In this document: positions 12,914-48,217 of the stretch, in pieces | Layout of the letters: each line of letters opens with the position of its first letter | How positions within the stretch are numbered: the stretch's first letter is position 1 | Assembly (NCBI GenBank): GCA_965208775.1 | Contig: OZ242360.1 | Span: forward strand, 126,085-190,084 | Source of the DNA: Chloroflexota bacterium | GTDB lineage: Bacteria; Chloroflexota; UBA11872; VXNJ01 | Reading direction: 5' to 3' | Length of the DNA stretch: 64,000 nucleotides | Position numbers and translations under genes: made by a program | The notes under the pieces: model-generated | What the model saw: the letters and a program-made list of their open reading frames with translations, nothing else | Databases searched by the model: none | What the model was told of the DNA's origin: nothing

Positions 12914-13091
12914 GCGAACTCGACCTCAGACACCCGTCCGTACTCTCCTGACTGCAACCCTGATGGCTCGACACGCGACCGGAGTGAGGTGCTGAAACGA
13001 CGGTTTCCGGCCATCTCTACCGCTTCGCTGTTGGGCCTGATCTCGCGGACTGGTGCTACGCTCTAATTGGGGTAGGCGCGAGTCGCCTCAA

Positions 13092-13163: not shown

Positions 13164-13393
13164 CCGATACCCTGGAAATCGCGCTAAAGCACGCCAACGT
13201 GACTTGTGGACCCAGCCTCATCTCTCAAGTCTGCGACCATTTCCTATTCGCAACGAAGCCAACTTCTTGTGTCGCCACACTAGTCGGCTTGGGCATACGC
13301 CATCCGGAGCTATAGAAGCCGACTGAATAGCACGACGGCATTTTAGAAAGCGAGCGGCGTCGAGAACTTCCCAGACTGCCGGCCCGCGATCAA

Positions 13394-15685: not shown

Positions 15686-15689
15686 CGTC

Positions 15690-16940: not shown

Positions 16941-17109
16941 GCCCCGCCGTAATCCGGCGGATTGCCAATGGGTCGAATGAGTCTGGTGCTAAATTACGCG
17001 TCATGCAACTGATTTCATCGAGCGCGCTTCCTTTCTCGCCCGCGCCCAGCCGTCACCCGTCCATCCGTGCGCCACGACGCACATGCCGCTCAGGAGGCAG
17101 TCAGCCGTC

Positions 17110-22633: not shown

Positions 22634-22662
22634 GCCTGCGTGACGCCCGAACATGAGCCAGC

Positions 22663-31523: not shown

Positions 31524-33272
31524 CTAACCGCCCACGTCCTCATGGACCTGATAAGAGACCTCGCCGGAGTCTGAGACTGTGATTCTGAGCACGGGAATGA
31601 TGGCGGCATCGCGCCATTGGTTCGGCTTGTCTTCGTGCCGCAGACGTACCGCCAGTACGTAGCTATCCGCGTCCAGCACCCCTTCGGACCGTTCAAGTGG
31701 TTTGAAAACGCCGTGCTCTCTTTGGACGGCCAAGCTGGGAGCGTGGAAGTCAAACTCGTGAATGAGAGAGGTCGTACCCTTGCCGGGATTCAGATAGCTA
31801 ACAAACCACATTGCGATGGCAGTAGGGCCGTTTGGCAGGACCTGCTTTGATGGGTTCCAAGGCAGAGGATCGGTGGCGATCAATACCCAGTCCTGGCTTG
31901 ACCACCGATCGGGAGCGCCGTCGTCGAAGGTTGCGGTGAAAGCGATGCGTCCTTCCGTATCGCTTACGTCGGAGATGCGGACGCTGAACCGCAGCGGTTC
32001 CGCCGACGGAGGCGGGGGCATGATTGGATCGACAGCTCCGTTGAGCGCGTAGACGGCGGCTTGCTCGTTCCACCAGATAGGCTCACGCGCCGCCGGAGGA
32101 AGCGCCCAAGGCAGGAAGGCCGCCGGTGTGATCATCAGGTCGGGTGTCTCTTCGCCGACCGGCCCAATCTGCCAAGTCGAACGCAAGTGCACTGTATTCG
32201 GGTCAATACTGCCCAGCAGCCGGGTATGGGAGAGGGTCCATGCAGTCTGGTAGAGGAGAATGGATTCGAAACCCTTCGGGATCAACACCGTTGCCGACGC
32301 CGCAACAGTCTGTCGTAGGTTTTCGAACGAACCGGCTGTTGGGGGCACGTCGAGGGTGAGAAGCGCAGGTAAGACTCGGTACAAGCGCTCGGACTCGTCG
32401 CGGACCAGGAGCTCGAACAGGCGAGGATCGTCCAGCCGCGCCGCGGCGTCTTCGGGCAGGCCCTCAACCCAATCATCAGGCGCGTGAAGGTATTCGAAAC
32501 CTATCCGCCGGATAGCCGCTACCTCCAGGAAATTGAGGACGTCCTTATACATAGGTCCTTCTCGCGGGTGCACGTGAACGAGTCCGGCAAGTCCCGATGC
32601 GTTCGGACGGCCCGTGGCGTAGGTAATTTCATGCGGGTAGGGCGAGAACACACGTGCATCGACCGCGGTGTTGTTGCGAATGAAATCTTCGATGCGGTCG
32701 GGCAATCCCCGGAGCTTGTGACGCCTAGCCAACCACTTGCCGTCGACCTGCGAAGCCGGTCCGGCGTTGGCCACCTCGATCCCTCTCCCTATCGCCCGTC
32801 TGAGGTTGGTGACCGGCGCCGAGATCGTAGGCCAAACTACCAAGCCCACGAGCAGAGCACCGGCGGCATAGCGGCAGCGGGACCCCAGCTTGGCCATTTG
32901 GCTGCTTAGGGCAATTAATAGCGCGAGCAGCGCCAGGTTGCGGGCATGACCAGCCAGGCGTCCCAAGTCGTGCGGAGCGGGGTCGTAACGCAGCACCAAC
33001 GCGGCGACAATCAGCATCAACGCACCCACGGTCAGCGCCAGCACGAACACCCAGCCAGCGATTGCGCCCGCCATTCCTGGCAGTACGAACATGACCAGGT
33101 TGACGACGACGCCCCAGATAGCCGGTCCGACGATCAGACCTTGCGCCAGCGCGACCCGGCGATCGGTCTCTCGCAGCGCCACCAAGACAATGACGTAACC
33201 AACGCCGACGAGCGCGACGAGCTCAGCCAGCAGGAAGAGCAGGCCGGGGACGACCGACGGATCGACTGTCAT
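31524..33272 (-). CDS. Short (582-aa) paralog of the 930-aa GT-C-like membrane protein, lacking the central ~350-aa polytopic region.
   Basis: The N-terminal ~80 aa and C-terminal ~450 aa align closely with the 33285..36077 product, while residues ~80–440 of that product have no counterpart here. Confidence 0.55.
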   Translation of the reverse strand: MTVDPSVVPGLLFLLAELVALVGVGYVIVLVALRETDRRVALAQGLIVGPAIWGVVVNLVMFVLPGMAGAIAGWVFVLALTVGALMLIVAALVLRYDPAPHDLGRLAGHARNLALLALLIALSSQMAKLGSRCRYAAGALLVGLVVWPTISAPVTNLRRAIGRGIEVANAGPASQVDGKWLARRHKLRGLPDRIEDFIRNNTAVDARVFSPYPHEITYATGRPNASGLAGLVHVHPREGPMYKDVLNFLEVAAIRRIGFEYLHAPDDWVEGLPEDAAARLDDPRLFELLVRDESERLYRVLPALLTLDVPPTAGSFENLRQTVAASATVLIPKGFESILLYQTAWTLSHTRLLGSIDPNTVHLRSTWQIGPVGEETPDLMITPAAFLPWALPPAAREPIWWNEQAAVYALNGAVDPIMPPPPSAEPLRFSVRISDVSDTEGRIAFTATFDDGAPDRWSSQDWVLIATDPLPWNPSKQVLPNGPTAIAMWFVSYLNPGKGTTSLIHEFDFHAPSLAVQREHGVFKPLERSEGVLDADSYVLAVRLRHEDKPNQWRDAAIIPVLRITVSDSGEVSYQVHEDVGG

Positions 33273-33284
33273 CGATCCGATCTC

Positions 33285-36077
33285 CTAGCTGCCGAGTACA
33301 TCCTCATGGACCTCATAGGAGATGTTGCCGGTGTCCGAGACTGTGATCCTGAGCACGGGAATGATGGCGGCATCGCGCCACTGGTTCGGCTTGTATTCGT
33401 GCCGCAAACGCACGGCAAGCAAGTAGTCGCCGGGGGCCAGCTCTCCTTCGGACCGTTGCAGCGGCTCCATCACGCCGCCTCCTCTTCGGACCGCCAGGAA
33501 AGGCTCGCGGGGGTCGAACTCATAGGCGAAAGAGCTGACGTCCTGTCCGGGATTCAAATAGCTGTCAAACCACGTTGCGATGGCAGCGCTGCCGTTGCCG
33601 AAGACCTGTTTCGGGAGGTTCCAGGGCGGAGACTGAATTTCGACGATCACCCAGTCCTGACCCGTCCATTGGTCAGGCGCGCGGTCGTCGAAGGTTGCGG
33701 TGAACGCGATACGTCCATCCGCCTCCGATACCTCCGATACCCGGACGCCAAATGGCAGCGGTTCTGCCCAAGGCGGTGGAGGCCTGATCGGATCGACTGC
33801 CTCGTCGAGCGCATAAACGGCGGTCTCGTCGTTCCACCAAATCGGCTGGCGCGAGGCGGCGGGAAACATCCAGGGCGAGAATTGAGCCGGGGTGATGATG
33901 AGGTCGGGCACCTGGTCGCCAACCGGCTCAGCCCGCCACGGGGTTAGCAAATGCAGTCTCGTGGGATTTATGAAGCCGAGCAGGCGGGTATGCGACAAAG
34001 CGCGAGCCGTGCGGATCCAAGTCCTCGCCGTATAGCGGCTGCCGCTCGCCTCGAATTCCCCCGGCAGCAATACCACTGTGGACGCGGGCACGGCTTGTCG
34101 CAACGCCTCGTAAGAGCCGGGCGCGGGCGGCGCATCGAGGCGCAGGAACGCGGGCAACACACGGTACAGGCTCTCGGACTCGTCGCGGATCAAGAGTTCG
34201 AACAATCGAGGATTACGAAGCCGCTGGACCGCTTCATCCGGCAGGCTGTCGACCCAATCCTCTGAGGCGTGAACGTAGTCGATGCCAAGCCGGCGAGTTG
34301 CGGCCGGCTCCAGATAGCCGAGGACATCCCGATATTCGGGGCCCTCGGCTGCAAGACCATGGACAAGTCCAACAAACCCCGACGCGCTGGGACGGCCCGT
34401 GGCGTAGGTCAATTGACGTGGGTGGGGCGAGAAGATGCGGGCGTCGACGTCGGTGTTCTTACGGATGTAAGCCGCGATTCGCTTCGACGGGAAGGATTCA
34501 AGCACAAACCGCCGGCTGGAAAGCTCGCCGGAGTCCTCGTGCATCGGCTGCGCATTCGCGACTTGCACGCCATTCCCCAGGGCATGGGCCAAGTTGCGGA
34601 TTGGGTGGATGGTGGTCGGCCAGACGATCAGGAGCACGATCGCGGCTCCGGCGGCGTAGCGCAAGGGCGCGTGCCGCAGATCAGGGAGGCGGGTGCTGAG
34701 AGCGATCAGGAGCGCAAACAGGGCGAAGACGCGCGCATGACCTTCAATACGTTGGATGTCCCACGGTCGAGGCTCATAGGTCAGCAGCAGCCAAGCTAAC
34801 AACAGGATGCCGGTTACGGCCAGCAGCGCCTGCACCAGGCGGTCGCGCCAAGCCAGCAGCGCGGCAACCCCGGCAACGACCAGCGGGCCAATGCTCAAGA
34901 TACCGACGCCGCCCGGCAGCCGATCAAACGTGCCGAGCAGCCGCCAGCCTTTGAAATACTCGTTGATGCCGAACAAGAAGGTAGACGCCGCGGAGCCGCC
35001 CAGGATATGAGAAGAGAATCCCCCGGCCAATAGCAGGAAGGCGGCAAAGACAAGGCCCGAGGCAGACCTGGCTGCATCGCTCCATCGAGCTGTACCAGCG
35101 CGTCTGGTTCGAACCAGGAAGGTGGCTTCCAGACCAGCCCACACCACGAGCACGATGGGAACGAGCGAAGTCGAAAGAAGGCCCAGGAACCCGACAAGCC
35201 CGGCAAGCATCATCACCGAAAGCCACGAGCGTCGTCGGGTCGAAGCGGCATGGGTGAGCACGACCAGCGCCAGAGCATACGACAGCGTGAACGCGGGCTT
35301 GTGGACGTTTTGCAGTGCTCCGACCGGCGCGTCGTGGAGCAACTCTGACCAGGGCCAGAAGATGTCCATTAGCGAGGAACGCAGCCCGGCAGCGGGAATC
35401 CCAGCCGGGAGAACAACCGTGAGAAGGCTGCCCGCCGTGAGCAAAAGAGGAGCAGCTATCAGCGCAATTGGTCCGGAGGCGCGCCGCATCAGCATAGTAA
35501 CGACGACGAGGAAGAGGCTAACCCAGGCATAGGCGCCCAGCAGCTCCTCGACGAAGGCCATATCCGGGCCGGACGGCGGGGCGAGCAGCCCCCTCACCAG
35601 GTTGGCGCCGTAGTGGTATGAAGCGGGCATCCCCGGACTCCACGGGAATTCGGGCGGAAACACGCCTGACCGAATTGAAGCGGCCAGTCCAATGTGAACG
35701 GGTGCGTCGGATAATCCGACCAATTGCCGGCTGGCGAGCGCGGCCCAGAAGAGCGCGACTGCCGTCAGACTGAACACCGCCGCCGTGCGGAGTTGCGGTC
35801 GAAGCGGATTCGGGGAGCGCCAGACCAGCACGGCTGCCAGCGCCAGCACGAATACCCAGCCCGCAATCGCTCCCGGCATCCCCGGCAGCACGTACATCGC
35901 CAGGTTGACGACGACGCCCCAGATCGCAAGTCCGACCACCAGCCCCTGCGCCAGCGCGACCCGGCGGTCGGTCTCCCGCAGCGTCACCAGGACAATGACG
36001 TAGCCAACGCCGGTGAGCGCGACGAGCTCGGCCAGCAGGAAGAGCAGGCCGGGGATTACGGATGGATCGCCTGTCAT
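33285..36077 (-). CDS. Large polytopic membrane protein with a C-terminal extracytoplasmic domain (GT-C-fold glycosyltransferase-like; family uncertain).
   Basis: The 930-aa ORF has more than 12 predicted TM helices, an FPPEFPWSPGMPASYHYG loop motif and a ~400-aa soluble C-terminal domain. It is paralogous to 40333..43101. Confidence 0.55.
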   Translation of the reverse strand: MTGDPSVIPGLLFLLAELVALTGVGYVIVLVTLRETDRRVALAQGLVVGLAIWGVVVNLAMYVLPGMPGAIAGWVFVLALAAVLVWRSPNPLRPQLRTAAVFSLTAVALFWAALASRQLVGLSDAPVHIGLAASIRSGVFPPEFPWSPGMPASYHYGANLVRGLLAPPSGPDMAFVEELLGAYAWVSLFLVVVTMLMRRASGPIALIAAPLLLTAGSLLTVVLPAGIPAAGLRSSLMDIFWPWSELLHDAPVGALQNVHKPAFTLSYALALVVLTHAASTRRRSWLSVMMLAGLVGFLGLLSTSLVPIVLVVWAGLEATFLVRTRRAGTARWSDAARSASGLVFAAFLLLAGGFSSHILGGSAASTFLFGINEYFKGWRLLGTFDRLPGGVGILSIGPLVVAGVAALLAWRDRLVQALLAVTGILLLAWLLLTYEPRPWDIQRIEGHARVFALFALLIALSTRLPDLRHAPLRYAAGAAIVLLIVWPTTIHPIRNLAHALGNGVQVANAQPMHEDSGELSSRRFVLESFPSKRIAAYIRKNTDVDARIFSPHPRQLTYATGRPSASGFVGLVHGLAAEGPEYRDVLGYLEPAATRRLGIDYVHASEDWVDSLPDEAVQRLRNPRLFELLIRDESESLYRVLPAFLRLDAPPAPGSYEALRQAVPASTVVLLPGEFEASGSRYTARTWIRTARALSHTRLLGFINPTRLHLLTPWRAEPVGDQVPDLIITPAQFSPWMFPAASRQPIWWNDETAVYALDEAVDPIRPPPPWAEPLPFGVRVSEVSEADGRIAFTATFDDRAPDQWTGQDWVIVEIQSPPWNLPKQVFGNGSAAIATWFDSYLNPGQDVSSFAYEFDPREPFLAVRRGGGVMEPLQRSEGELAPGDYLLAVRLRHEYKPNQWRDAAIIPVLRITVSDTGNISYEVHEDVLGS

Positions 36078-36330
36078 CGCTACTGCCCTGTCATCGCACG
36101 CAATGCCGTGACCGGGTAGCGATTACAGGCGGAGCCGGGATCAATGTCACCAGAGGTAGTACCGCAACAATGTATGCGAGCGGCGCCCGCCGACGCCACT
36201 CGGAGTCGAAGACGGGTCATACAGCGCGAAGTTTACTTTGCCTTAGTCCACCTCGGCCGCAGGCCACGAGTCCGGCTTGAAGTCCAATCCCGTCTGGCGA
36301 CTTGACAGTTTTCCCGGCAAAGCCAGACCG

Positions 36331-37344
36331 CTATGCGTTCCAGCGCTCGCGTGATTCTGGGCTTCGCCGCAGCCGGCCTGCCACGGTTCCCCAAGCATAG
36401 ATGAGCAACGTCAGCCAGCACGCGGGCGCGTGGAGGATCCAGGCAGGATCGCCCGACCGCCTGTATCCCGTCCACGAGTCTTTCAACAGCGGAACAATCG
36501 TTAGACAGGCGACTACAAAACGCAGCAGTCCGCGTTTGTGCGCCGCGCTCCATTGGTCCGACCGCTTGCCGTACCGGCGGAAATACAGATAGTCGCGGAT
36601 CCGGCGAGTCTGCTTGGCCGCGAACTGACGCAGCCCGTCCGCGTATAGATGGACTATGCCTATTTTGACCTTTGCGAATTCGAAGCTGCCGCTTCGAGCC
36701 AGGCCGTCCGTCACGTCTACGTCGAAGAAGTAATCGCGGTCTCGCCACTGTCCAAGCGCATCCCTCCGCCAGACCGTTCCGTTTGCGCCAATGGTCGGCA
36801 TCAGTCCGGCTTCGAGCTCAACCGTCAAGAAATCACCGCCGTCCACCGTGTTGACCGGCAGCGATGTCCACTTTCCGGTAAGCATATTCAACCGGTCGTA
36901 GTTGCCTATGAAATGGCAAAGCGGATCGTTCACGCCCAGCATCGCGCAATACCGGGTAAAAGCAGGATCGCCGTCTCTCCTGGTGAATTCCCAAGGCTCG
37001 GAACCGACCAGGTCGCGGTTCTCGGCCATCGGCGCGACCATTCTGGCGAGCCAGTCCTGCCGAGGCAGAATGTTGTCGCTATCCACCAGCGCGACGAGAT
37101 CGCCGGATGCGCGGCGGAGGGCGGCCGCCTTTCCCGCCTCTCCGGTTTTCAGAGGATTCTCGATGACCTCAGCCCCGTAGCCCAGAGCCAGTTCCGGTGT
37201 TCCATCGCTCGACCCTCCGTCGGCGACAATGATCTCTACACGCTCTCGGGGATAGTTCTGCGTGACGATTGATTCCAAACACGCCGGCAGTGTTTGGGCA
37301 GAGTTGAGAGTCGGAATCAGCACGCTGACCGTAGGCTGATTCAA
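36331..37344 (-). CDS. GT2-family glycosyltransferase (polyprenyl-phosphate sugar synthase-like; DPM1/CsbB/GtrB type).
   Basis: It has VSVLIPTLNSAQTLPACLESI…DGGSSDGT and a DxD motif (VDSDNIL), plus a hydrophobic C-terminal tail. Confidence 0.75.
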   Translation of the reverse strand: MNQPTVSVLIPTLNSAQTLPACLESIVTQNYPRERVEIIVADGGSSDGTPELALGYGAEVIENPLKTGEAGKAAALRRASGDLVALVDSDNILPRQDWLARMVAPMAENRDLVGSEPWEFTRRDGDPAFTRYCAMLGVNDPLCHFIGNYDRLNMLTGKWTSLPVNTVDGGDFLTVELEAGLMPTIGANGTVWRRDALGQWRDRDYFFDVDVTDGLARSGSFEFAKVKIGIVHLYADGLRQFAAKQTRRIRDYLYFRRYGKRSDQWSAAHKRGLLRFVVACLTIVPLLKDSWTGYRRSGDPAWILHAPACWLTLLIYAWGTVAGRLRRSPESRERWNA

Positions 37345-37468
37345 GATCGCCGCCCGCCCACTACAAGAAATCGGGGTACGCGAGTAGTCCCATAGTCTCC
37401 TGATCGGTGCCTCTACGCCCCACTGTGGGTTATCGATCGCTCAACGACTAAATCGTTCATCGACGCCG

Positions 37469-38203
37469 CTAAAAGGTGATTTCAGGCAAACGATACATCA
37501 GCGCAAACGCCAGCATGGGCGCAGCGAGCGCGGGTATGGCAGCTGCCAAACGGGGTTGGCGCTTCGAGGACTCCGCAAACACGGCGAGGGCCAGGAAAAC
37601 CAGAAGGCCGGCAACTACGCCCGCGCCCAAAGGATCACTCCGCATGAACCTCCACAGGAAGCCCACCGGGCCGACCTCGGACCAAACGCGGATTGCCAGG
37701 TCCTGCTCCGGGGGCCGGTTGCCGTCGTGATCCTTGAAGCGGCCGTCGGGATATTGATCTTGAAGACCTGCGCCTATGTGGACCTCACCAGTTTCCCCTT
37801 CCGGCAAGAAGAATTGAAATTCCAGGATGTCGTCCGATTCGACATTCAGAGGATCGAATTCGACGCGCGTCCACGCGTCTTCAACATCGGGAGGAACCTG
37901 CACCAATGCCTCTCGAACGAGCGCATCCAATCTCTTCGACCACACTCGTACCGCAATCCGGACAGGGGTCTCAGACCCGGACGTTAGCGGCAGCTCAATT
38001 GTTGTGAGCGTGACGGAGCCCGTGTTGACTGTCTGGCTTACAGGGAGTCCGATAGGCCCCATACGAAACTGCGAAACGTTTGTGGTTTCCAGGTGAGGAA
38101 CGCTTCGCGACCCCAGCACAAGCATCCCGACCGCCGCGACAATCGCCGCGATTGCTATCGCCACCGGCAGATGACGCTCAAACCGCGCGCTCCGCAGGCT
38201 CAA
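37469..38203 (-). CDS. TM–ectodomain–TM membrane protein resembling the N-terminal module of the LtaS-like paralogs.
   Basis: An N-terminal TM is followed by a ~150-aa domain with motifs (VRIAVRVWSKRLD…, AIRVWSE) that parallel VRIWARARFD…/LQLWVSTE in the LtaS-like N-terminal domains, then a C-terminal TM. Confidence 0.45.
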   Translation of the reverse strand: MSLRSARFERHLPVAIAIAAIVAAVGMLVLGSRSVPHLETTNVSQFRMGPIGLPVSQTVNTGSVTLTTIELPLTSGSETPVRIAVRVWSKRLDALVREALVQVPPDVEDAWTRVEFDPLNVESDDILEFQFFLPEGETGEVHIGAGLQDQYPDGRFKDHDGNRPPEQDLAIRVWSEVGPVGFLWRFMRSDPLGAGVVAGLLVFLALAVFAESSKRQPRLAAAIPALAAPMLAFALMYRLPEITF

Positions 38204-40299
38204 GTTCTAAACCCTCGAACGACTCGTCCGACAGGAGTGACGGAGAGGATTAGCACGATCAGGACCAATCCCGATATCGCATATCCGATAACGACGTATT
38301 TCTGCAATTCATAACTGACCGTGATGGTGCCGGGCCCTGAAGCGGGTAAGTTCCAGGAGTTGAAGAGAGGGTCGGGCGAACGCTCGAGCGACTTTCCGTC
38401 GAGGGTGGCCTTCCAGTGAGGGGATGCATATTCGCGCAAGATCAGACGGTCCGGCTCTTCGCTGCCCTGCAATTGAATTTCGTATCTGGTCGGAGAAGAC
38501 CTTCGCCATTCCGGTTCAGCTCCGCCGATGTCTACCAGAGGCGCGGGTACGCCGATGAGGTCGAAACTCCGGATAAGTAGTCCGCCCGAGCGCTCTCGAA
38601 GCCCGGGAAGTGACGCAATGGTCTCGGCCAGACGTTCGCCCTCCCGGTCGTCGGCAGCCAGTGCAACGGCGCCCACGCCCTCCGCACGCAATATATCTGC
38701 GAATCGGGAAGGATCGGCCAGAGCGTTATCGGCAAGCGAGCGAACCGGAGTCAGGGCGTACACCAACACGCGGGCGCGCATCGATCCCGCCACAGCTCCC
38801 CGAACAATTCGAGCCGAACCCCACGACGTTGTCCGGTTGGGCTGGTTGAATACCAGGACCGCCGCATTGGGGTCTGACATTGGCCTGAACTCATCGGTAA
38901 ATTCGTAATACTCGCGGGGGAATTCGGCTGGAATGTAACTCGCGAAATCGGTTTGAAAGAGCGACCGTTCGATTGCCGGTCGCATCCATACGACCATGGC
39001 GCCCGCCACCGTCGCGACCGCTAGCCCACCCATCCAGCGTTTCAGCGGCCAGTTTCGCTTTGCCGGTAGCTCCATCGCGGTCGGAACCATCCACGCGATG
39101 CCCACGGCGTAGCCCATGGGCACCAGCGCTCCAATCTTGTCCGGTTCCCGTATCAACCAGCCAACCGGAACCGATCGCACGATCCACTCGTATATCTGAC
39201 CGCCCCCGGGAAGGCTGCTCAAACTCATCAACACGACGAAGGCTCCCGTTATCCCGAGGACGAAAACCCACGTCGATCGGCGGCGGCGGTCGAAGATTGT
39301 CGCCAGCACCAGCGAGCCGACGCCGAGCAAGCTGGATACAGACCACCCGACCGCGGCAAAGCCGGATGGCCGAAAGTTGACACCAAAGAAATGGTGTGCC
39401 GTCAGCGTGAGGGCACTCCACAGGGTTTGGGTTTGGGTGGAGACGATCACCGGAGCCGACTCGTAGGCATAGGGCGGCCCGACCTGCCCGCCCGCAAAGA
39501 AGGTCGAGGCGGCGGGAACCCACACAAACGCCCCTGTGACGATGACCGCCAAGACGTAGACAACTCCGATCTTGAAGATCGTCTTCCGGCTGTTCGACCG
39601 CTGCACGAATCGAACGACCCACAGAAGACCCACTGCCAAGACGGTAATCGCGAGATAGTGTGGGCTTCCCGCTGATATCAACATCGTGGCAAGGCCAGCC
39701 CCAACGGCCGGCGGCCACCGGCGGCTGCGAATCGAATATGCCATCAACCCGATAACCAGCGGCAACCCGAGTGCCGAGAGCGCCACGCCGAGCTGCTCCA
39801 GGCGGCCCAGGTACCACGGATTCGCGACCCAGAACACCGAGCCGAGAGTAAGCCCCAATGATTCGCTCACGGTCAGGCCGCGAGCTCTTCGCGAGGGGCC
39901 AAGCAGCAGCCGAAAGCCAGCCCATGCCGTCACGAATCCAATGAGCGCCCATCCGACCACGACCGACTTCATGATCGCGGAGCTGGATAGTCCACCCAAT
40001 TGTCCGGCCGCAACAAAAGGCCCCCACGTGCCGAAGAGCCCTATGGATACCAGAACGCTATGGCGGTTCGGGTCCCAGGCCGGGTAGAAGATCCGCGGCA
40101 AGAGGTCCGCGTGCAACGCATAGGTGAGATCGCCCTGGAGAATCTCACCAGGTGTGACTATGACCCGCCACCACAGTGCGATTACCACGGCAAGTCCAGC
40201 CAGGAAGATTGCGGGGACATGTAAACGATCGCCCCTGAGAATTGAGTTGGCCCGCGCCAGACCGCCGGCGCTCCATTCAAGACGGGGTTGCCGCGTCAT
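38200..40299 (-). CDS. YfhO-like/GT-C-like large membrane protein (699 aa), paralog of 45470..48217.
   Basis: It has an N-terminal polytopic region, a C-terminal extracytoplasmic domain and a final TM. Shared motifs with the paralog include NPWYLGRLE, SPHYLAIT and YASPHWKATLDGKSLE. Confidence 0.55.
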   Translation of the reverse strand: MTRQPRLEWSAGGLARANSILRGDRLHVPAIFLAGLAVVIALWWRVIVTPGEILQGDLTYALHADLLPRIFYPAWDPNRHSVLVSIGLFGTWGPFVAAGQLGGLSSSAIMKSVVVGWALIGFVTAWAGFRLLLGPSRRARGLTVSESLGLTLGSVFWVANPWYLGRLEQLGVALSALGLPLVIGLMAYSIRSRRWPPAVGAGLATMLISAGSPHYLAITVLAVGLLWVVRFVQRSNSRKTIFKIGVVYVLAVIVTGAFVWVPAASTFFAGGQVGPPYAYESAPVIVSTQTQTLWSALTLTAHHFFGVNFRPSGFAAVGWSVSSLLGVGSLVLATIFDRRRRSTWVFVLGITGAFVVLMSLSSLPGGGQIYEWIVRSVPVGWLIREPDKIGALVPMGYAVGIAWMVPTAMELPAKRNWPLKRWMGGLAVATVAGAMVVWMRPAIERSLFQTDFASYIPAEFPREYYEFTDEFRPMSDPNAAVLVFNQPNRTTSWGSARIVRGAVAGSMRARVLVYALTPVRSLADNALADPSRFADILRAEGVGAVALAADDREGERLAETIASLPGLRERSGGLLIRSFDLIGVPAPLVDIGGAEPEWRRSSPTRYEIQLQGSEEPDRLILREYASPHWKATLDGKSLERSPDPLFNSWNLPASGPGTITVSYELQKYVVIGYAISGLVLIVLILSVTPVGRVVRGFRT

Positions 40300-40332
40300 G
40301 GAATTGCCCCGGACTCGCGTAGGGTTTCGCTA

Positions 40333-43101
40333 TTACTCAATGAACGCCGCGGCAAGCGGCCCTTCGAAAAATTCGAATCTAGGACCTCCATCCTGGCTTG
40401 CGTGGACTCGCAAAACGGGCAGAACTATACGCTCATTCCCATCTAGCGTAAGCCGCATCGCCAGTACGTAGGATCCTGTAATCAGCTCTCTCGTCGAGGA
40501 CTGCGCGGGGAGGAATCCACCGCCTCCGGTCGACCACTGCAAAGTGCCCGTTTCGACGTTCCAATCGTATTCAACTCTGAGATCGTGGGACGATGGGTTC
40601 ACCTGTCCGCTGTACCAGTGGACAGGTCGATTCTGCAGTGCAGGCACTGCCCACCGCGTTCCGTCGTCGGCGATTAGCACCCAGTCCTGCCCGGTCCAAC
40701 CGTCGGGATCGCCAATCTCAAATCTCATAGCGAACCGGATGCTCTGCTCGTCCACGCGTGATTCCTCGATATCGACCCAAAGGGCCGCATTTCCCCGTCG
40801 CATGGCCCCGTCTTCGACATCGCCGACGGCATAGACGGCGTTCCCCTCCCTCGACCAGACAGGTGATCGTAGATGAGCCGGTAATACAGTGGGAGATAGC
40901 CGCGAGGGTAGGATCAAAAAGTCGAGGTCTTCACCGTTATAGGGATTTAGGCCTAAAGTGCTTCGCACGTGCGCCGGATCGCCAAGATCTCCGTATAGCA
41001 CTGCTCCTTGCAAAGCCGCGGCCATCGAAAGCCGTTGAAGTGGATGGACGGCCGGCGAGATATAAACCCTGGCCCCTTTCCCCGTAAGGGTGCGCAGCGC
41101 GTTGAATGATTCCGGGACCGGGCTCGCGGCAAGCTCGGAAAATGGCTCAAGGATTTCGTATAAGGCGCCTTCGTCACCTTGAACAAGCGGCTTGAAATAC
41201 TCGGGGCTTTGCAGCCAGTTCCTTGATTGCTCGGATAACCCATCCTCCCATTTTGGGGTTGCATGGACATAATCGACTCCCAGTCTGCTGACCGCTTCCG
41301 GGTCGAGATGCTCTATCGCGTCAAGGTATTCCGGACCACGAAGCCCTACATACTGCGTAAAGCCAACGTAACCATAGGGCGCTGGCCTTCCCGACGCGAC
41401 TGAAATCGTCATGGGATTCGGAGACAGGATCGAGGCGTTCCCCACTAGATCATCTTTGATATAGGACACTAGTTCCGCCGGAACTCCGGCCAACTCCGCC
41501 CGTCCCATGATGCCCGCACGGATCCTGCGCGTCTCGGCCGTTGGAATGGCAATTTGCGGACCTTCTTTTACGGCGAACCAGAGATTCGCGCCCGAACCGG
41601 CGACCGTAGGCCAAACCACGATGACGCCAAGCGCCGCGCAGGCAATTCTGTGAGGCCATCGCTTGAGCCGGGCCAAGAAATATCCAATCACCAGGATCGT
41701 CGCGATGAGAAGAAGGTTTCGAAAATGCCCCTGCAGTCGAAGATTGTCGAAACTCGAGAATTCGTATTCGACGAACAGGCCCACTGTCCACATTGCCAGA
41801 CCGGCCCCGGCAAGAAGCAAGCCAATCAAACCGGCTCGCCAACCTAGCGCCACTAACGCCACGAGCACCAGCGGACCGATGCCCAGGATCCCCAGACTTC
41901 CAGGCAGGCGATCGATCGCTAGAAGGTCTGTAACGTTCGGCAAATCCGGCCATACGAACGCCAATCCGGACTCACCGCCCGCGCTGCGAAAGACGGTATC
42001 AAACAGCACTCCACCGTAGACGACCGCCAGCAAAATCGAGAGCGCGATTCCGGCCGTACCGGCTCTCAGGTCGGAAATACGAGTTTCGCGAACGCGAGCG
42101 AAGCGGAAGGCCACGACCATCGCCCAAATCAGCGCGAAGGCTGCAAATACCGGCTCGTCGAGCAGCATGAGGTAAGCGCCGAGCACGGACGTCGCTACAA
42201 GTCCTACGACGGGGCGTGCGCCACCCGCGACCAGCCGCTCGACCAGCATCAGCAAAAGTGCATACGACATGGAAAATGCTGGATTGAAGATGTTGGGCGG
42301 ACTCGCCTCCACCGGCGCCATCCACGGCACTCCGGCCCCAGGAAAGTAGACATCCAGAAGCGAGGCTCGAATGCCTGCCTGAGGCAGTCCGCCGGGCACC
42401 GCGGCCAGCAAAGTCCACGGCTGATCTCCGACCAGCACCAAAGTCCATGCCCCGGCGCTGAGCATCAGCGGCACGGTCAGGATCAAGGACCACAGCGATC
42501 GATTGCGGGCGACCAGACTCCCCACTATCAGAAAGAGAGCCGTAACCGAGAAGGCGCCCAGCAGCTCGGTTACGAGAACGTAGCCCAAGCCCGTTCCGGC
42601 TTCTAGCGCGCCGATTATGAGATCGGGACCATAGTGGTAAAACGCCGGCTCGTTTGGATTCCATGGGAACGCCGGGGGGAAGTTCCCGGCCATCATCGAC
42701 GCTGTCAGGGGTACGTGCACGCCGATGTCGGGGACCCACAGTAGTTGACGAGCGCTGAGCGCTATCCAAAACACCGGCAGAAAGATCGCCGCGAATGTCG
42801 CGGCAGCGGATCGAGAGGGTCTCGGCTCGACGCGCTTTTTCCAAATCAACACCACGGTTAGCATGGCGGCGGCAGACCATGCCAGGACCACTCCAATTGC
42901 GCCGGGCGCGACGTAGAACGCGGCGTTTACCAGAAGGCCCCAAAGGGCAAGTCCCGCGATGAGTCCTTGAGCAGCCGCCAGATAGCCCGGCTTCTGTCCC
43001 AGAAGCCCGCGCACGACGACGTAACCGAATATGGCGATGGCGCCGACCTGTATTGCAAACAACGCGAATCCAGGCAGTAGCCCAACGTCGACTAAAGGCA
43101 A
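40333..43101 (-). CDS. Large polytopic GT-C-like membrane protein (922 aa), paralog of 33285..36077.
   Basis: The corresponding loop motif is FPPAFPWNPNEPAFYHYG, with the same overall architecture. Confidence 0.55.
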   Translation of the reverse strand: MPLVDVGLLPGFALFAIQVGAIAIFGYVVVRGLLGQKPGYLAAAQGLIAGLALWGLLVNAAFYVAPGAIGVVLAWSAAAMLTVVLIWKKRVEPRPSRSAAATFAAIFLPVFWIALSARQLLWVPDIGVHVPLTASMMAGNFPPAFPWNPNEPAFYHYGPDLIIGALEAGTGLGYVLVTELLGAFSVTALFLIVGSLVARNRSLWSLILTVPLMLSAGAWTLVLVGDQPWTLLAAVPGGLPQAGIRASLLDVYFPGAGVPWMAPVEASPPNIFNPAFSMSYALLLMLVERLVAGGARPVVGLVATSVLGAYLMLLDEPVFAAFALIWAMVVAFRFARVRETRISDLRAGTAGIALSILLAVVYGGVLFDTVFRSAGGESGLAFVWPDLPNVTDLLAIDRLPGSLGILGIGPLVLVALVALGWRAGLIGLLLAGAGLAMWTVGLFVEYEFSSFDNLRLQGHFRNLLLIATILVIGYFLARLKRWPHRIACAALGVIVVWPTVAGSGANLWFAVKEGPQIAIPTAETRRIRAGIMGRAELAGVPAELVSYIKDDLVGNASILSPNPMTISVASGRPAPYGYVGFTQYVGLRGPEYLDAIEHLDPEAVSRLGVDYVHATPKWEDGLSEQSRNWLQSPEYFKPLVQGDEGALYEILEPFSELAASPVPESFNALRTLTGKGARVYISPAVHPLQRLSMAAALQGAVLYGDLGDPAHVRSTLGLNPYNGEDLDFLILPSRLSPTVLPAHLRSPVWSREGNAVYAVGDVEDGAMRRGNAALWVDIEESRVDEQSIRFAMRFEIGDPDGWTGQDWVLIADDGTRWAVPALQNRPVHWYSGQVNPSSHDLRVEYDWNVETGTLQWSTGGGGFLPAQSSTRELITGSYVLAMRLTLDGNERIVLPVLRVHASQDGGPRFEFFEGPLAAAFIE

Positions 43102-43323
43102 GAACGACTCCTAAGATCGTCCAATTCGGTATGCGCACCTGCGGCATATTATTGTGCCGTCGCCATTCCGTAATCGCTTGGAGACGATGCCGGGGCAATA
43201 GACTAGTGATTGAGTTTGACAACGGCGGGCAGAGATGCCGGACTCAGGAAAGGTCGCCCCGAGGATCAAGACTGAAAGAACCCGCAAACACAACCATCAC
43301 GCCAGCTCCGTGATCGCGGTCAA

Positions 43324-44607
43324 TTGAGACGGATCCGAATTCCGGCAATCGTCCGCGACAATCTCGTATATCTGCCGTTCTTCGCCGCGGTGAGCGTCCT
43401 GAACTACTCGTTCCAGGTATACATGGCGCGCACGCTCGCACCCGGACACTACGCGGCCCTCATTGCGGCGCTATCTCTGCTGGCGATACTTTCCAGTCCC
43501 AGCGCAATTATCGCCAACCTTAGCGCCAGGACCGTCGGGACGTATTGGTCGGCAGGGTCGGTCGTCCGCTTACGGCACCTTCTGGCCCGAGTATGGGTTT
43601 GGCTCGGCTCCGCTTCGGTAGCGTTGTCGTTGATATTTGTAGCGCTGTCATGGCCGATTGCAGAAGTCCTCTCGATCGAATCCATGTGGGTAGTGATCTG
43701 GGCCGCTATCGCCGTTGGGCCGGCATTGCTGTCCCCTCTCCTGGCCGGAATGTTGCAGGGGGCGCGATCGTTCGCTCTCTACGGCGCGTTTGGCGCCTTT
43801 GGTGCGGGGACAAGGCTCGGTATCGGAGTCCTGCTCGTCGGTACAGGATTCGGCGCTGCCGGAGCGATGGCGGCGACTCCCGCTTCCGGGTTTCTCGCGA
43901 TCGCCGCCGGCTACGCGGGATGGCGTTGGCTAATGCGTGGCAGGACGAGCGACGACAAAGAAAACCTGACGATTCAACTTCCGATTCGCGGCCAGCTTCA
44001 GGTGGCTGCAATCGGCGCGGTGCAGATTCTGCTCTTCAATCTCGATATCTTGTTTGTAAAGGCGCTATTCGACGAACAGATTGCGGCTGACTACTCCGCC
44101 GCCGCGCTGGTAGGACGAACTATCTTCTTTGCCGTGAGTCCGCTGGCCACCGTCCTGCTTCCAAACGTGGTCCACAACGCCGTCCGCGGAGAGAACTCGC
44201 TCGGCATTTTCGTATTTAGCCTGTCGGCCGTTATCGGGCTATGCCTGATCGGCGTTTGTGTCGTGTTCCTGTTTCCGGATCTGATCTACAAGGTCGTATT
44301 CGCCGACGTCTACCTGCCCTATCTGGACGTATTGCGGGCTTACGCGCTGTCTGGCTCGCTGCTATCCATCATCATGCTGCTTGCCACATTTCACATCGGC
44401 GTCTCGAATCTCAGAATCTGGTTGCCGATGTCAGTTCTACTGCCGCTACCAATAGTCAGCTACACGGTCTTCAACGCCAACCCCGGTCAAATCGCCTGGG
44501 CGATGGTGGCATGCCTCACCGTTTACACCATCTATATCGCCTGGGAAACACTCAGGTTCGCAGCCAGGCGAGGCGATCGGGAGTCACCGCCCGCAACCGT
44601 CGGCTAG
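43324..44607 (+). CDS. Polysaccharide/oligosaccharide flippase (MOP/Wzx-like). TTG start, so the start is uncertain.
   Basis: The 427-aa protein is polytopic with an N-terminal Wzx-type pattern (…NYSFQVYMARTLAPGHYAALIAALSLL…). Confidence 0.65.
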   Translation: MRRIRIPAIVRDNLVYLPFFAAVSVLNYSFQVYMARTLAPGHYAALIAALSLLAILSSPSAIIANLSARTVGTYWSAGSVVRLRHLLARVWVWLGSASVALSLIFVALSWPIAEVLSIESMWVVIWAAIAVGPALLSPLLAGMLQGARSFALYGAFGAFGAGTRLGIGVLLVGTGFGAAGAMAATPASGFLAIAAGYAGWRWLMRGRTSDDKENLTIQLPIRGQLQVAAIGAVQILLFNLDILFVKALFDEQIAADYSAAALVGRTIFFAVSPLATVLLPNVVHNAVRGENSLGIFVFSLSAVIGLCLIGVCVVFLFPDLIYKVVFADVYLPYLDVLRAYALSGSLLSIIMLLATFHIGVSNLRIWLPMSVLLPLPIVSYTVFNANPGQIAWAMVACLTVYTIYIAWETLRFAARRGDRESPPATVG

Positions 44608-44647
44608 CGTTGTCTCGATTCGAAGCGCCAGCCGCCTTTCCAAGCCA

Positions 44648-45439
44648 TCACAACGGCCACGGCTCGAGCGCATTGAACACGCCGAAAAGCACCCAGGCAG
44701 CCGAACCGGCGATGAGCAGCGCCACGATTACGGCCTCCGGCAGAGCTCCTCCAACCATCCGCGCCGCACGTAGGGAAACCCAACCGGCGCCGACTATCAG
44801 AGCCGCCGCCGTTGCCGCTAGAAACAACAGACTGACGGCCGGTGTGCCAAGCATCGACATCAAGACCGAGCGCGGTGTCGACCGCCGCCACAGTTGCAAG
44901 ACGAGATCGTTGTCTCCGCTTCCCGGGTCGCCGTTTATCGACGCCTGGCCGGCCCCGTACCCGTCGACGCGATTACCCTGCAAGTAGATTGGCCCCGGCG
45001 AGTCCGCGGGATTCACCACCTGAATGACTATTCCGGAACCAACCACAGACACGTGTGACGGTATTCCTATGGCCGCCTCGCCGCTAGGCTGGACGTCAAC
45101 AAGCTGCTCAAATAGGACAACCTGTTCGGAACCACTCTTGTGGAGAATGCGAACAATGGCCCCGACGGCGGATGCCGGTCTGTCGATCCAAACGGCCGCC
45201 TTCGTTAGCGGCTCTGGCATGTCGCCCAGCGACTGCTCGGCAGCGGCGCCCGGGGGCAGCGGGCCGTATTCGAGATTGAAGTCGATTGCCGGAATCGACG
45301 GCCACTCCCGCTCGGAAGTGGTAAGTGCATACATGCCCGAAAGCAGCGCGACGAACCCGACCAGCGCGGGGAGCAATCGCCGCCAGAGCGGCGTCCTGCC
45401 GCCGGATTGGATTGTTAGAGTGGCTCGCAAGCCTGACAT
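44648..45439 (-). CDS. TM–ectodomain–TM membrane protein, second standalone homolog of the LtaS-like N-terminal module.
   Basis: I placed the start at the internal Met 63 to avoid a 155-bp divergent overlap. The architecture matches the 37469..38203 product. Confidence 0.4.
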   Translation of the reverse strand: MSGLRATLTIQSGGRTPLWRRLLPALVGFVALLSGMYALTTSEREWPSIPAIDFNLEYGPLPPGAAAEQSLGDMPEPLTKAAVWIDRPASAVGAIVRILHKSGSEQVVLFEQLVDVQPSGEAAIGIPSHVSVVGSGIVIQVVNPADSPGPIYLQGNRVDGYGAGQASINGDPGSGDNDLVLQLWRRSTPRSVLMSMLGTPAVSLLFLAATAAALIVGAGWVSLRAARMVGGALPEAVIVALLIAGSAAWVLFGVFNALEPWPL

Positions 45440-45469
45440 CACTACTTCTTTAGCTGAGGGCCGCGATAA

Positions 45470-48217
45470 ATGATAGGCAAGCGAAGCACGCTGGTCTGGA
45501 TCGCGGCTTTCATATTCGGGCTTGCGACAGTAGCCGCGGTCTATAGCTTGGTGCTCACCCAGCCCGGCGACTTGCAGCAGCGCGACCTTTACCCCTCGCT
45601 GTTCCTCGAAAGGGTAGTCGAGCATTCCGTATACCCGCTGTGGTCGCCGCGCGGCACATTCAACATCGCCGGTACCGGACGACTGCCTATAACCCTCATT
45701 CTGGCGGGGTTCGCCAAATTGTTCGCTCTCGATGGCGCCACCTACGCACGATTGATAGTCCTCTGGATCGTGTTAGCCGCCTACACGAGCGGCTTCTTCG
45801 GGTTCTACCTCCTGTCACGGTGGCGTCGTGGAGAAGGTGGGAACGTTCCGATCGGAGCGCTGGTCTGTGGAGTGGTCGCAGCCGTAAACCCGTGGACTAT
45901 CGCCAGGCTCGAGCACAGCTGGGTGATGGCCCAATGGGCCGTCCTACCGATCGTCGTTGGAGCGTTTGCCGAGGGTCTCCGCACGGGGCGCAAAAGGTGG
46001 ATTCTGGGTTCCGCCCTGATTATGGCGGCATTCGGCACGACCCAACCACACTACCTGGTAATTACAACCGGGGTTGTGTTCTTGACAGCCGCCGTCGTCG
46101 CGGTCTGGGGCTCAGGAAAACCGGTCAGGCATTTCGCCGACCTCGGGCTGTGGTTATTGACTCTCGTGCCGCTCTCTGCGCACTTAATCGCCCCTTACGC
46201 GGCGGCGAGGCTCCTTGCCGGAACCGGCGACCCCGCCTACACGCTGACCGACCAGACCCTCACCACGATCTCAAGATTCCAGGACTTGCCCGGAACACTG
46301 CTTGGGACCGGCAATTTCAATTGGCAGGACGTACTGGCCCCCTCTGGCCCGGAGAGAGTCATATGGTCGATGGCGGCATGGGTCATCGCTTTGACACCGC
46401 TCGGCGCAATCTTGCTGGCGGGATGGAGGCGGCCGGCCATAGCTCTGGCGGCGGGCGGGTATCTGGTGGCTGTTTTCCTGTCGATGTCGCATTGGGAATG
46501 GACCGCCGAGCTGTTCCAGCGAGCGGTCAACGACGTGCCCGGATTCTGGGTCTTCCGGGAGCCTGACCGCACCACAGGCTTGGTCGTATGGTCTCAGGCG
46601 CTCGCCTTGGGGATGGTGGCAACCAGCCTCACGGCCTGGCGAGGTCCGCGGCGACAAGCCGTGAGCCGGTGGGCGATTGTGGCCTATCTCGCAGCCGCCG
46701 CAGTGTTTCACGCAGCCCCCGCAACGGTAAACGCCCTTTGGAAATCCGACGTGTCGAACTATGTTCCAAAGCCGCTCCCGGAAGACTACCGGCGCGTGCT
46801 GCGAGCGGTTGACCGTAGCACGGATCCAAACGGCCGCATTCTCGTCGCTTCGTCGGACGAACGGGCGCCTAACTGGGACAAGACTCGAATAGTCAGGCTC
46901 ATGGAAGCCGCCAGCATTGAATCGCCCAGCATCACCGGCGATACGCGGTCTCCGGTCCCGCCCTCGCCCGTCTCCGGGCGGTGGTTTGAGTTCTTTTACT
47001 CGCTCCCGGGAGACGAGGCCGTTGACGCGGCCCGTAACGCCGGCTTCGACCGTATCGTGGTCGTTCGCGACTACGACGCGGGAGAAAGCACGTTCTCCGC
47101 AATCTCTCAGGCTCCCGGCGTGCGAGACATCGCCGCTGGACCGAACATCTGGGCGGGCGAGCTTTTCGAGGACGGGCCTCCTACCATCGAGACCGGTGTT
47201 CCCATCCTCGTCACTGACTTGGCATCGACCACGGACACGAATGAAGTGGCCGTACTCGCCAATCATTCGGCGGCGTTGGATCATCCCGGAGTTTCCATCG
47301 CGTCCGCCTCGACCGCCGAAGCCGCTATCGAACAGTCATTTGCCGAGCTTGGGCCGTCCGGCGTCAGACCGGTCACGGACTGGTTTGGATTCCGCAGCCG
47401 GCGCGGGGGCTGGATACGAGGCGGCGCGTACGCAGACGAGCGCCAGACCTGGCAAGCCGAACTCCGCCGACTGGGACTCGAGTCATGGAGCGCCGACTAT
47501 GACCTCGGCATCGCCTTCGCCCCGCCCGGAGAAGCGCGAGATCGAATGACCATTGACACCCATGACGCGCGCGGACGGACGACAGCCCAAACAGAGGAGT
47601 CAGGCCCGCGCAGGGTCTATACCTACAATGCGCCAACGGTATGGCTGCGAGTTTTCACGAGCCCGGAATCGGACTGGCTCGACATAGAGTGGCAAGGCGG
47701 CGGAAAGCGGATCGATACCAACTCGCTCGAAGCAACCTGGCGGTGGGTCGAGATTGGAGCGATCGGGAGAGAAACAATTGCGATTGTTCCCGGCCCCGGA
47801 CTGGCCGCTGTCAACGCCATCGCAATCGCGCCGGCCGGCTGGAGTCCCGAAGACCGATCGCCGTCCGTCCAATTCGTTCATGCGGAAGTCGAATATCAGC
47901 GCCTGTCTGCGACGAGATATGCCGCAAGCCTGACTTCCGACCGCGGACTGGTCTTCATACTGCTCCGCGAGGCCTACGATCCACTTTGGCGAGCCAAGGT
48001 GGACGGAGGAAGCATTGAGCCTGTGCTCGCCGACGGACTCTGGAACGGATACGTGATTCCCGTGGCGGAGGGAGGCGTCACAAATGTCACGTTCGAGTAT
48101 GCGGCCCAGCGGTGGTACGACGTCGGGATAGGAATATCGCTGGCAAGCGCTCTGACGTTGGGCGCTCTTTGGGCGATTTTCGTAGTCCGCGGTCACACCA
48201 AAAGGCGCACGTTATGA
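45470..48217 (+). CDS. YfhO-like/GT-C-like large membrane protein (915 aa).
   Basis: NPWTIARLEHSW, TTQPHYLVITT, FREPDRTTGLV and YDPLWRAKVDGGSIEP motifs, plus a C-terminal TM, match the 38200..40299 product. Confidence 0.55.
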   Translation: MIGKRSTLVWIAAFIFGLATVAAVYSLVLTQPGDLQQRDLYPSLFLERVVEHSVYPLWSPRGTFNIAGTGRLPITLILAGFAKLFALDGATYARLIVLWIVLAAYTSGFFGFYLLSRWRRGEGGNVPIGALVCGVVAAVNPWTIARLEHSWVMAQWAVLPIVVGAFAEGLRTGRKRWILGSALIMAAFGTTQPHYLVITTGVVFLTAAVVAVWGSGKPVRHFADLGLWLLTLVPLSAHLIAPYAAARLLAGTGDPAYTLTDQTLTTISRFQDLPGTLLGTGNFNWQDVLAPSGPERVIWSMAAWVIALTPLGAILLAGWRRPAIALAAGGYLVAVFLSMSHWEWTAELFQRAVNDVPGFWVFREPDRTTGLVVWSQALALGMVATSLTAWRGPRRQAVSRWAIVAYLAAAAVFHAAPATVNALWKSDVSNYVPKPLPEDYRRVLRAVDRSTDPNGRILVASSDERAPNWDKTRIVRLMEAASIESPSITGDTRSPVPPSPVSGRWFEFFYSLPGDEAVDAARNAGFDRIVVVRDYDAGESTFSAISQAPGVRDIAAGPNIWAGELFEDGPPTIETGVPILVTDLASTTDTNEVAVLANHSAALDHPGVSIASASTAEAAIEQSFAELGPSGVRPVTDWFGFRSRRGGWIRGGAYADERQTWQAELRRLGLESWSADYDLGIAFAPPGEARDRMTIDTHDARGRTTAQTEESGPRRVYTYNAPTVWLRVFTSPESDWLDIEWQGGGKRIDTNSLEATWRWVEIGAIGRETIAIVPGPGLAAVNAIAIAPAGWSPEDRSPSVQFVHAEVEYQRLSATRYAASLTSDRGLVFILLREAYDPLWRAKVDGGSIEPVLADGLWNGYVIPVAEGGVTNVTFEYAAQRWYDVGIGISLASALTLGALWAIFVVRGHTKRRTL

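Follow-up and report, generated by a model that had tools for sequence, protein, structure and literature searches.

The locus described here raises the question of what a Chloroflexota bacterium does with a set of very large membrane proteins encoded next to a glycosyltransferase gene. It lies in a stretch of 64,000 nucleotides (the window) from contig OZ242360.1, which belongs to the metagenome-assembled genome (MAG) of an uncultivated Chloroflexota bacterium, and has a GC content of ~60% throughout. An initial annotation of this DNA proposed an analogue of lipoteichoic acid synthesis, in which LtaS-like proteins, a family 2 glycosyltransferase (GT2), a Wzx-like flippase and YfhO-like giants build or decorate a polymer outside the cell. 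Our analysis favours another answer, to which we give a probability of roughly 60%: a core of seven genes encodes a Chloroflexota-specific machine that would glycosylate an extracytoplasmic target from lipid-linked sugars. We refer to the giants as A or B proteins according to family, to the small membrane proteins as S, to the LtaS-like candidates as L, and to the remaining core proteins as GT2 and the 12-TM protein, after its twelve predicted transmembrane (TM) helices; syntenic or partial loci of relatives are numbered L001–L013.

The core is arranged on both sides of a divergent intergenic gap of 222 bp (43102–43323). On the minus strand, A1 (40333–43101, 922 amino acids, aa), a family A membrane protein with a GT-C fold, opens a conserved run which continues with the family B GT-C-like membrane protein B1 (38200–40299, 699 aa) and S1 (37469–38203, 244 aa), whose start shares 4 bp with the end of B1, and is closed by GT2 (36331–37344, 337 aa), a glycosyltransferase of the GT-A fold. 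Across the gap lie the 12-TM protein (43324–44607, plus strand, 427 aa), a putative lipid-linked-sugar flippase, then S2 (44648–45439, minus strand, 263 aa), a small TM–ectodomain–TM protein whose gene is convergent with the 12-TM gene and divergent from B2, and finally B2 (45470–48217, plus strand, 915 aa), the second family B GT-C-like protein, which carries an extra ectodomain insert of ~200 aa. The open reading frames (ORFs) were found exactly where the initial annotation had placed them, and every cluster protein for which an NCBI name could be looked up is a “hypothetical protein”. The strand of S2 needed care. The minus-strand ORF that contains it runs from 44648 to 45625, with the conserved part beginning at about residue 63–69 (judged from L005 and L011); this protein is conserved in relatives, whereas the overlapping plus-strand ORF (45024–45473) has a non-coding-like codon-position GC, hence S2 was assigned to the minus strand. 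A second small TM–ectodomain–TM protein does exist, as first described, but it had been grouped across the gap with the 12-TM protein and B2, and its strand is the opposite one.

All seven core genes (B2, S2, 12-TM, A1, B1, S1 and GT2) recur in a further six genomes of Chloroflexota, with protein identities of 42–96%, in the syntenic loci L004, L005/L011, L007, L008, L009 and L010. Both order and orientation are kept: B2 (minus), S2 (plus), 12-TM (minus), a variable gap, then A1, B1, S1 and GT2. Orthologues of GT2 and of the 12-TM protein occur in all syntenic loci (62–91% and 58–96% identical, respectively), and those of B2 are 55–78% identical. The GT2 gene and the giants A1, B1 and B2 are thus co-conserved across Chloroflexota genomes, within the set of seven; co-occurrence of GT2 and giants was among the checks put forward with the initial annotation.

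The divergent gap that separates A1 from the 12-TM gene is a hot-spot of insertion among the relatives: it measures 222 bp in the window versus 5.4 kb in L004, L008 and L010. The L004 insert (4727–9842) was read gene by gene, while those of L008 and L010 are known by size and place; it encodes a membrane protein of 694 aa whose C-terminal region is lectin-like, together with a PpgS-like GT2 and a DUF2304 protein, and in addition a further GT2 and a methyltransferase. The PpgS-like enzyme (245 aa) matched the PpgS model NF058614 at 3.5e-33 over nearly its full length, with 115 bits against a cutoff of 370, and also matched the models for AglJ, dolichyl-phosphate (Dol-P) hexose transferase and ArnC. 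L005 adds a GT4 gene, two GT2 genes and a methyltransferase gene.

Partial or decayed B1–S1–GT2 copies were also observed in L001/L002 (10001–13250), L012 and L013, amid transposases and insertion sequence elements, integrases and restriction-modification genes. In L001 the reading frame of S1 is interrupted by a stop, and of GT2 only short fragments remain in L001 and L013. The MAG with contig CAXXFA010000002.1 holds one complete cluster (L009) together with the fragments L012 and L013.

The giants fall into two paralogous families, as had been proposed. All-against-all BLAST aligned A1 with A2 (33285–36077, minus strand, 930 aa), an accessory second GT-C paralogue of family A, over their full length (32% identity over 945 aa, E 1e-130), and B1 with B2 at 25% identity over 579 aa (E 4e-31). 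Neither family scored above threshold in any Pfam or NCBIfam model. Family A is rare, with 68 relatives among 5.8 billion proteins, and a search of its alignment and profile against PDB sequences gave no relevant match. The fold became apparent from an AlphaFold2 model built on a 37-sequence alignment (predicted local distance difference test score 81.5, predicted template modelling score 0.82): the core is a GT-C fold, with AftA as the top match among known structures. A1 is composed of an N-terminal extension of three TM helices, the GT-C core and a ~400-aa ectodomain with a terminal beta-sandwich. In the family model the three N-terminal helices are followed by a helix at 97–118 and a long loop, and the last ~400 residues are taken up by an alpha/beta domain and then a beta-sandwich. 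Across the 37 sequences the loop contains a nearly invariant D125, an invariant H156, D160 and a YHYG motif, and the charges flanking it suggest, by the positive-inside rule, that it faces outside.

Below threshold, A2 matched DUF2298 (PF10060; E 0.0016, 18 bits, cutoff 27.8) and TIGR03662, Chlor_Arch_YYY (E 0.0026, 16.5 bits, cutoff 300), A1 matched neither PF10060 nor TIGR03662, and one family A homologue (P0047) has a precomputed PF10060 match. The YHYG motif, conserved in family A, resembles the YYYxG motif from which TIGR03662 takes its name. DUF2298 and TIGR03662, both of which also occur in Chloroflexi, are like family A in the weak A2 matches and in this motif, but differ in that the A2 scores stay under the cutoffs; DUF2298 is itself uncharacterised, and the literature search found it named in two papers only.

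Family B is larger and more diffuse. A word-indexed search returned 14 close relatives, and the same 14 were recovered when it was repeated with alignment, while a HMMER profile scan reached 1335 cluster representatives at E ≤ 1e-3. Among 42 spread-out relatives from this wider set, 11 matched the MmpA model (NF053599, best 2.2e-12), two the AftD N-terminal GT-C domain (PF11847) and one YfhO (PF09586, at 2e-6), by which family B is shown at the sequence level to be related to MmpA-, AftD- and YfhO-type proteins. B2 itself matched the NCBIfam MmpA model with E 1.8e-5 and 23.5 bits (cutoff 210), a score that indicates relationship and not family membership; B1 had no match to it. According to a published study of MmpA (PMC8698533), this protein is similar to the membrane-embedded N-terminal portion of AftD. 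B1 begins with TM1 and a loop that bears the conserved Asp57; a polytopic core and an ectodomain follow, and a beta-sandwich precedes the last TM helix. The Asp after TM1 (D57 in “QGDL” of B1; “QRDL” in B2) and the Arg of a W-x-x-R-E-P-D motif are both invariant across the 42 distant relatives. Searched against PDB sequences, the profiles of family B and its superfamily returned only a CBM6 domain at E 0.03. This match, to the CBM6 of cellulase B (1uxz), is weak and falls in the insert region of the superfamily profile. The extra ectodomain insert of B2 (residues ~590–800, window 47250–47900) also occurs in many long family B relatives and may be a CBM6-like carbohydrate-binding module.

No profile similarity was detected between families A and B (hhalign probability 3.8%), hence two independent GT-C families sit at this locus. 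In both, a conserved Asp directly follows a TM helix predicted to run from inside to outside, an orientation that agrees with the flanking charges under the positive-inside rule. GT-C enzymes have their catalytic acid at this position, in the first outside loop. The GT-C architecture given to the giants at first reading was therefore sound, by model for family A and, through family-level matches, as GT-C-like for family B. The more specific name YfhO was not, as A1, A2, B1 and B2 have no PF09586 match even at E ≤ 10. We also considered the giants as transporters and rejected this, because all top structural matches are GT-C-fold proteins.

A GT-C fold need not mean transfer, and the giants could be non-catalytic scaffolds or lipid handlers that organise envelope-lipid transport together with the S and 12-TM proteins, comparable to MmpA, which takes part in the export of trehalose lipids, or to PIG-U of the glycosylphosphatidylinositol transamidase. 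Among named families, family B has a direct match to MmpA alone, which is described as lacking catalytic motifs, is possibly a membrane anchor and is co-transcribed with another membrane protein (PMC8698533). A separate role for the ectodomain is suggested by A3 (31524–33272, minus strand, 582 aa), a truncated family A paralogue that retains its ectodomain without the GT-C core. Set against this, both families and distant relatives retain the Asp of the first outside loop, and every genome links the cluster with GT2 genes, several of them also with a PpgS-like synthase. We hold such a non-catalytic role to be improbable.

The conserved GT2 is a family 2 glycosyltransferase (PF00535 at 7.8e-23). 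It contains a DSD motif, and the two helices at its C-terminus are weakly hydrophobic. Its top solved relative is 6yv7 (1e-13, residues 3–108 only), followed at a distance by ArnC (7e-5). That it is of the polyprenyl-phosphate type, as the initial annotation had it, did not follow from the NCBIfam equivalog models, whose scores remain far under their cutoffs: 21.8 bits for ArnC (cutoff 529), 27.5 for Dol-P hexose transferase (375) and 15.3 for PpgS (370).

For the 12-TM protein, hydropathy and sequence predict 6+6 helices with a positively charged N-terminus and central loop, a topology compatible with MOP/Wzx proteins although not specific to them. It had no NCBIfam match, did not match the MOP models PF01943, PF13440, PF14667 or PF03023, and found nothing among PDB sequences, solved MurJ included, by single-sequence or profile search. 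Comparison with Escherichia coli RfbX, WzxC and WbbH by hhalign gave no signal, in a test that is powerless, as RfbX against WzxC fails too. With no flippase family model matching it, the “Wzx-like” label is a guess.

S1 and S2 each have one TM helix, a ~150-aa ectodomain and two further TM helices by hydropathy, and neither matched a family in Pfam or NCBIfam. They are probably distant paralogues (hhalign E 7e-5, probability 63%, 175 collinear columns). S1 follows B1 in every relative, and the B1–S1 pair persists even in the decayed copies of L001 and L002.

“GT2, flippase, GT-C acting outside” is the best reading of the cluster because GT-C giants, a membrane-anchored GT2 and the 12-TM protein are co-conserved and because some relatives add a PpgS-like enzyme and DUF2304. 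We infer the catalytic activity, donor, flippase role, B–S partnership and acceptor as follows. Enzymes of the GT-A fold at the cytoplasmic face, namely the conserved GT2 and in relatives also the PpgS-like synthase with DUF2304, would load sugar on a polyprenyl-phosphate carrier or lipid-linked intermediate. The 12-TM protein, DUF2304 or both would then bring the lipid-linked sugar to the outer leaflet. There A1, B1 and B2, GT-C-fold proteins of two unrelated families, would transfer the sugars by means of the Asp in the first outside loop, aided by their large lectin-like ectodomains, to an acceptor for which a wall polysaccharide, a lipoglycan and a surface protein are the candidates. Each B enzyme may pair with a small S partner, with its TM segment, beta-rich ectodomain and TM segment, and A2, A3 and the L proteins would be accessory additions in the window genome.

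Several observations weigh against this scheme. The PpgS-like/DUF2304 pair was not found in the window, and neither were a priming phosphoglycosyl transferase, a GtrA-type flippase or a sugar-nucleotide gene. GT2 matches polyprenyl-phosphate glycosyltransferase models weakly and through its N-terminal ~110 aa only, and the 12-TM protein and three of its orthologues have no Pfam match at E ≤ 10. The AlphaFold model of B1 is of low confidence, from a shallow alignment of 11 sequences, and the structural match lists also contain PIG-U/GAB1, which are GT-C-fold non-transferases. MmpA itself is without demonstrated transferase activity (PMC8698533). Finally, the operon structure is deduced from gene spacing only.

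A different possibility is protein glycosylation, with the giants as oligosaccharyl- or mannosyl-transferases (as PglB/AglB/STT3 or PMT) acting on S-layer or other surface proteins and the 12-TM protein flipping a lipid-linked oligosaccharide. The extra cytoplasmic GT2 and GT4 enzymes and methyltransferases of the relatives fit the building of an oligosaccharide, and a protein wall would be a plausible target given that peptidoglycan genes are missing from part of the Chloroflexi of sponges (SAR202; PMC6306507). However, no cluster protein matched the STT3 or PMT models and the cluster contains no candidate acceptor protein gene, so that we regard this as possible but unlikely.

Outside the core, the region downstream of GT2 varies among relatives, from which we conclude that A2, A3 and the L genes are accessory. 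In the window GT2 is followed by A2, A3, L3, L2 and a methyltransferase gene, in L008 directly by L3-like and L2-like genes, and in L004 and L007 directly by a hydantoinase block; A2 is missing from this position in all three relatives. The minus-strand operon had been credited with four polytopic giants, of which A1, A2 and B1 stand while A3 is truncated and has lost its core. By blastp, A3 residues 1–80 are 89% identical to A2 and residues 76–582 match A2 414–929 at 58%, so ~340 aa of membrane core are lost, leaving one or two TM helices and the ectodomain; DNA repeat spacings (2805 versus 1764–1785 nt) place the internal deletion at ~1 kb. With its GT-C core deleted, A3 cannot be a GT-C catalyst.

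As a tandem copy of A2, A3 is still an intact ORF of 582 aa despite the lost core. The 5′ 242 nt of the two genes are 87% identical and their 3′ parts 75–76%, which suggests recent 5′ gene conversion or faster divergence of the ectodomain. None of the 68 family A homologues has the A3-type architecture; the shorter homologues P0059 and P0066–68 were considered and rejected, being C-terminally truncated or frameshifted. Plus-strand AT skew at 34001–36000 is very strongly positive (0.27) and coincides with the A2 membrane core on the minus strand, the likely cause being T-rich codons of hydrophobic residues. Family A is also found in tandem elsewhere: L003, from another Chloroflexota genome, carries five genes of ~940 aa (1105–15710), each ~43% identical to A2, and part of a sixth copy on the opposite strand (22266–22793), while genes for GT2, family B and S proteins are lacking for 10 kb around. 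This lineage-specific expansion hints at diversified acceptor or linkage specificity.

Three LtaS-like proteins had been described immediately upstream of the cluster. L2 and L3 (26702–31350, plus strand, 756 aa each) do adjoin it as accessory neighbours, but the third paralogue, L1 (13394–15685, minus strand, 763 aa), is 11 kb away. They share 67–79% identity (L1 is 79% identical to L2 and 67% to L3) and one architecture: a TM helix, a ~150-aa ectodomain, a TM helix, an Arg-rich linker, a block of ~5 TM helices and a C-terminal domain of the alkaline phosphatase superfamily. PF00884 gave 29.3 bits for L2, 23.8 for L3 and 16.6 for L1, with only L2 reaching the cutoff of 25. No NCBIfam model matched at E ≤ 0.1, LtaS (NF053595) included, and PDB sequences gave no match, also with a five-sequence profile at E ≤ 10 (LtaS and EptA included). 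All three proteins keep DEYP, a Ser/Thr-rich SNYxxT/S segment, KPHxPY and GDHG(H/R), motifs suggestive of a metal site. We rejected the L proteins as true sulfatases because no formylglycine motif (C/S-x-P-x-R) occurs in their catalytic domains, the only pattern matches being in the TM/linker region at residues 215–261; the initial annotation had named such a motif as evidence for sulfate-ester sulfatases. They are best described, as far as their sequences go, as membrane-anchored alkaline-phosphatase-superfamily enzymes and not as members of the LtaS family, and whether L2 and L3 belong to the system is uncertain.

This bears on the original proposal, in which the L proteins are LtaS-type synthases of a glycerol-phosphate polymer that GT2, flippase and GT-C proteins decorate in the manner of CsbB/GtcA/YfhO. 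L2 and L3 adjoin the cluster in the window and in L008, the L proteins combine a TM block with an outside domain bearing metal-site-like motifs and no formylglycine motif, their N-terminal module is perhaps related to S1/S2, and one distant family B relative matches YfhO. Yet the LtaS model is unmatched, no solved LtaS or EptA relative was found, the PF00884 scores are marginal and the L genes are not co-conserved, being missing beside the cluster in L004 and L007. The window giants miss the YfhO model, and a GtrA/GtcA-type ORF (~120–150 aa, four TM helices) or Pfam match is lacking from 31.5–48.2 kb, the architecture of S1 and S2 being different. What survives of the three-component logic is a GT2, a putative transporter and GT-C proteins; the identities CsbB, GtcA and YfhO do not. 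The analogy with lipoteichoic acid is thus unsupported, and we consider this explanation very unlikely.

The N-termini of the L proteins (26702–27350, 29080–29730 and 15040–15685) have an S1/S2-like architecture and share with the S proteins the motif GP..P....EQ.L and a L.LQLW-like strand. A combined S1+S2 profile aligned with the L N-terminal ectodomain at an hhalign probability of 39% (E 3e-4, 86 columns; reversed control 0.1%), while neither S1 nor S2 alone gave a significant match by BLAST or hhalign, so that homology is suggestive. If it is real, S1, S2 and the L N-termini could be one new module, with a beta-rich ectodomain of ~150 aa between TM segments, that docks outside-acting enzymes on a common lipid-anchored envelope polymer, free-standing as S when it serves family B GT-C proteins and fused to an alkaline-phosphatase-superfamily phosphotransferase in L. 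The polymer would then be made by a teichoic-acid-like or lipoglycan pathway of unannotated families, specific to Chloroflexota and diversified by tandem family A arrays. We consider this extension unlikely; it would imply a pathway that possibly shapes the recognition of symbionts by their sponge hosts.

Two neighbours of the L genes deserve mention. At 17083–18594 (plus strand) a soluble 503-aa “sulfatase” matches PF00884 at 6e-32 and an arylsulfatase model at 5e-34, under its cutoff. It has TVPNR at the place of C/S-x-P-x-R, hence it may not be a formylglycine-dependent sulfatase, and it adjoins a BNR/sialidase-like gene (15690–16940). Beside L2, at 24778–26313 (minus strand), a 511-aa protein combines an N-terminal region of ~330 aa without family assignment with a weak class I methyltransferase domain; given the methyltransferases inside the L004 and L005 clusters, the pathway may also methylate its sugars.

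Between L1 and the cluster lie hydantoinase A/B, cupin, GFO/IDH/MocA, sulfatase-like and BNR genes, and the right flank (48.3–62.7 kb) consists of metabolic genes including ABC sugar-uptake genes. No nucleotide-sugar or ABC-exporter genes were found in or beside the cluster, as claimed at the outset. For the divergent promoter proposed at 43102–43323 a promoter scan gave no more than chance would, and terminator counts were likewise at chance level.

We came across no account of this cluster in a search of the literature. Both GT-C families, the S partners and the multi-GT-C organisation in Chloroflexota are new, whereas the kind of system and its component logic were already known, and no concept is overturned. 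Experimental knowledge of Chloroflexota cell envelopes is almost absent, above all for uncultivated lineages, and the cluster defines two GT-C families outside all Pfam and NCBIfam models, a conserved small partner and a seven-gene unit to test. From isolate names such as COS3_bin_10 we infer that the related MAGs come from sponges or other marine hosts. If the favoured explanation is true, these enzymes build or decorate a lineage-specific surface glycan, a plausible determinant of symbiont–host interaction, and the design of many GT-C proteins on one envelope glycan would extend from Mycobacteriales to another monoderm phylum.

The cluster can be compared with mycobacteria and corynebacteria, where AftA, AftB, AftD and Emb are several GT-C proteins with large outside domains working on one envelope glycan, and where MmpA is related to AftD. 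AftA is nearest to family A structurally, AftD and MmpA are nearest to family B by sequence, and the co-transcription of MmpA with another membrane protein loosely recalls the B–S pairs. The Chloroflexota cluster differs, however, in that its proteins are not members of those family models, it belongs to another phylum, no genes of the decaprenyl-phospho-arabinose pathway were seen, family A has its N-terminal three-TM extension and the S partners are without a known counterpart. A second comparison is with PpgS (Rv3631), Rv3632 (DUF2304) and Rv3779, which reportedly form a three-component system that transfers galactosamine to arabinogalactan. A PpgS-like GT2 and DUF2304 lie together inside the L004 cluster, and probably in L008 and L010, which have the same insert size; the differences are that the pair is not in the window, that 115 bits is below the cutoff of 370, and that there are at least three GT-C proteins instead of one. 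CsbB/GtcA/YfhO of Firmicutes share the three-step logic with an outside-acting GT-C protein, and the C-terminal beta-sandwich and last TM helix of family B resemble the YfhO architecture, but the window has no PF09586, GtcA/GtrA or LtaS-family match and its GT2 lacks full-length similarity to CsbB/GtrB. As the closest working analogy, the cluster would stand nearer to the arabinogalactan and lipoarabinomannan machinery of mycobacteria, with its PpgS module, than to the glycosylation of lipoteichoic acid in Firmicutes.

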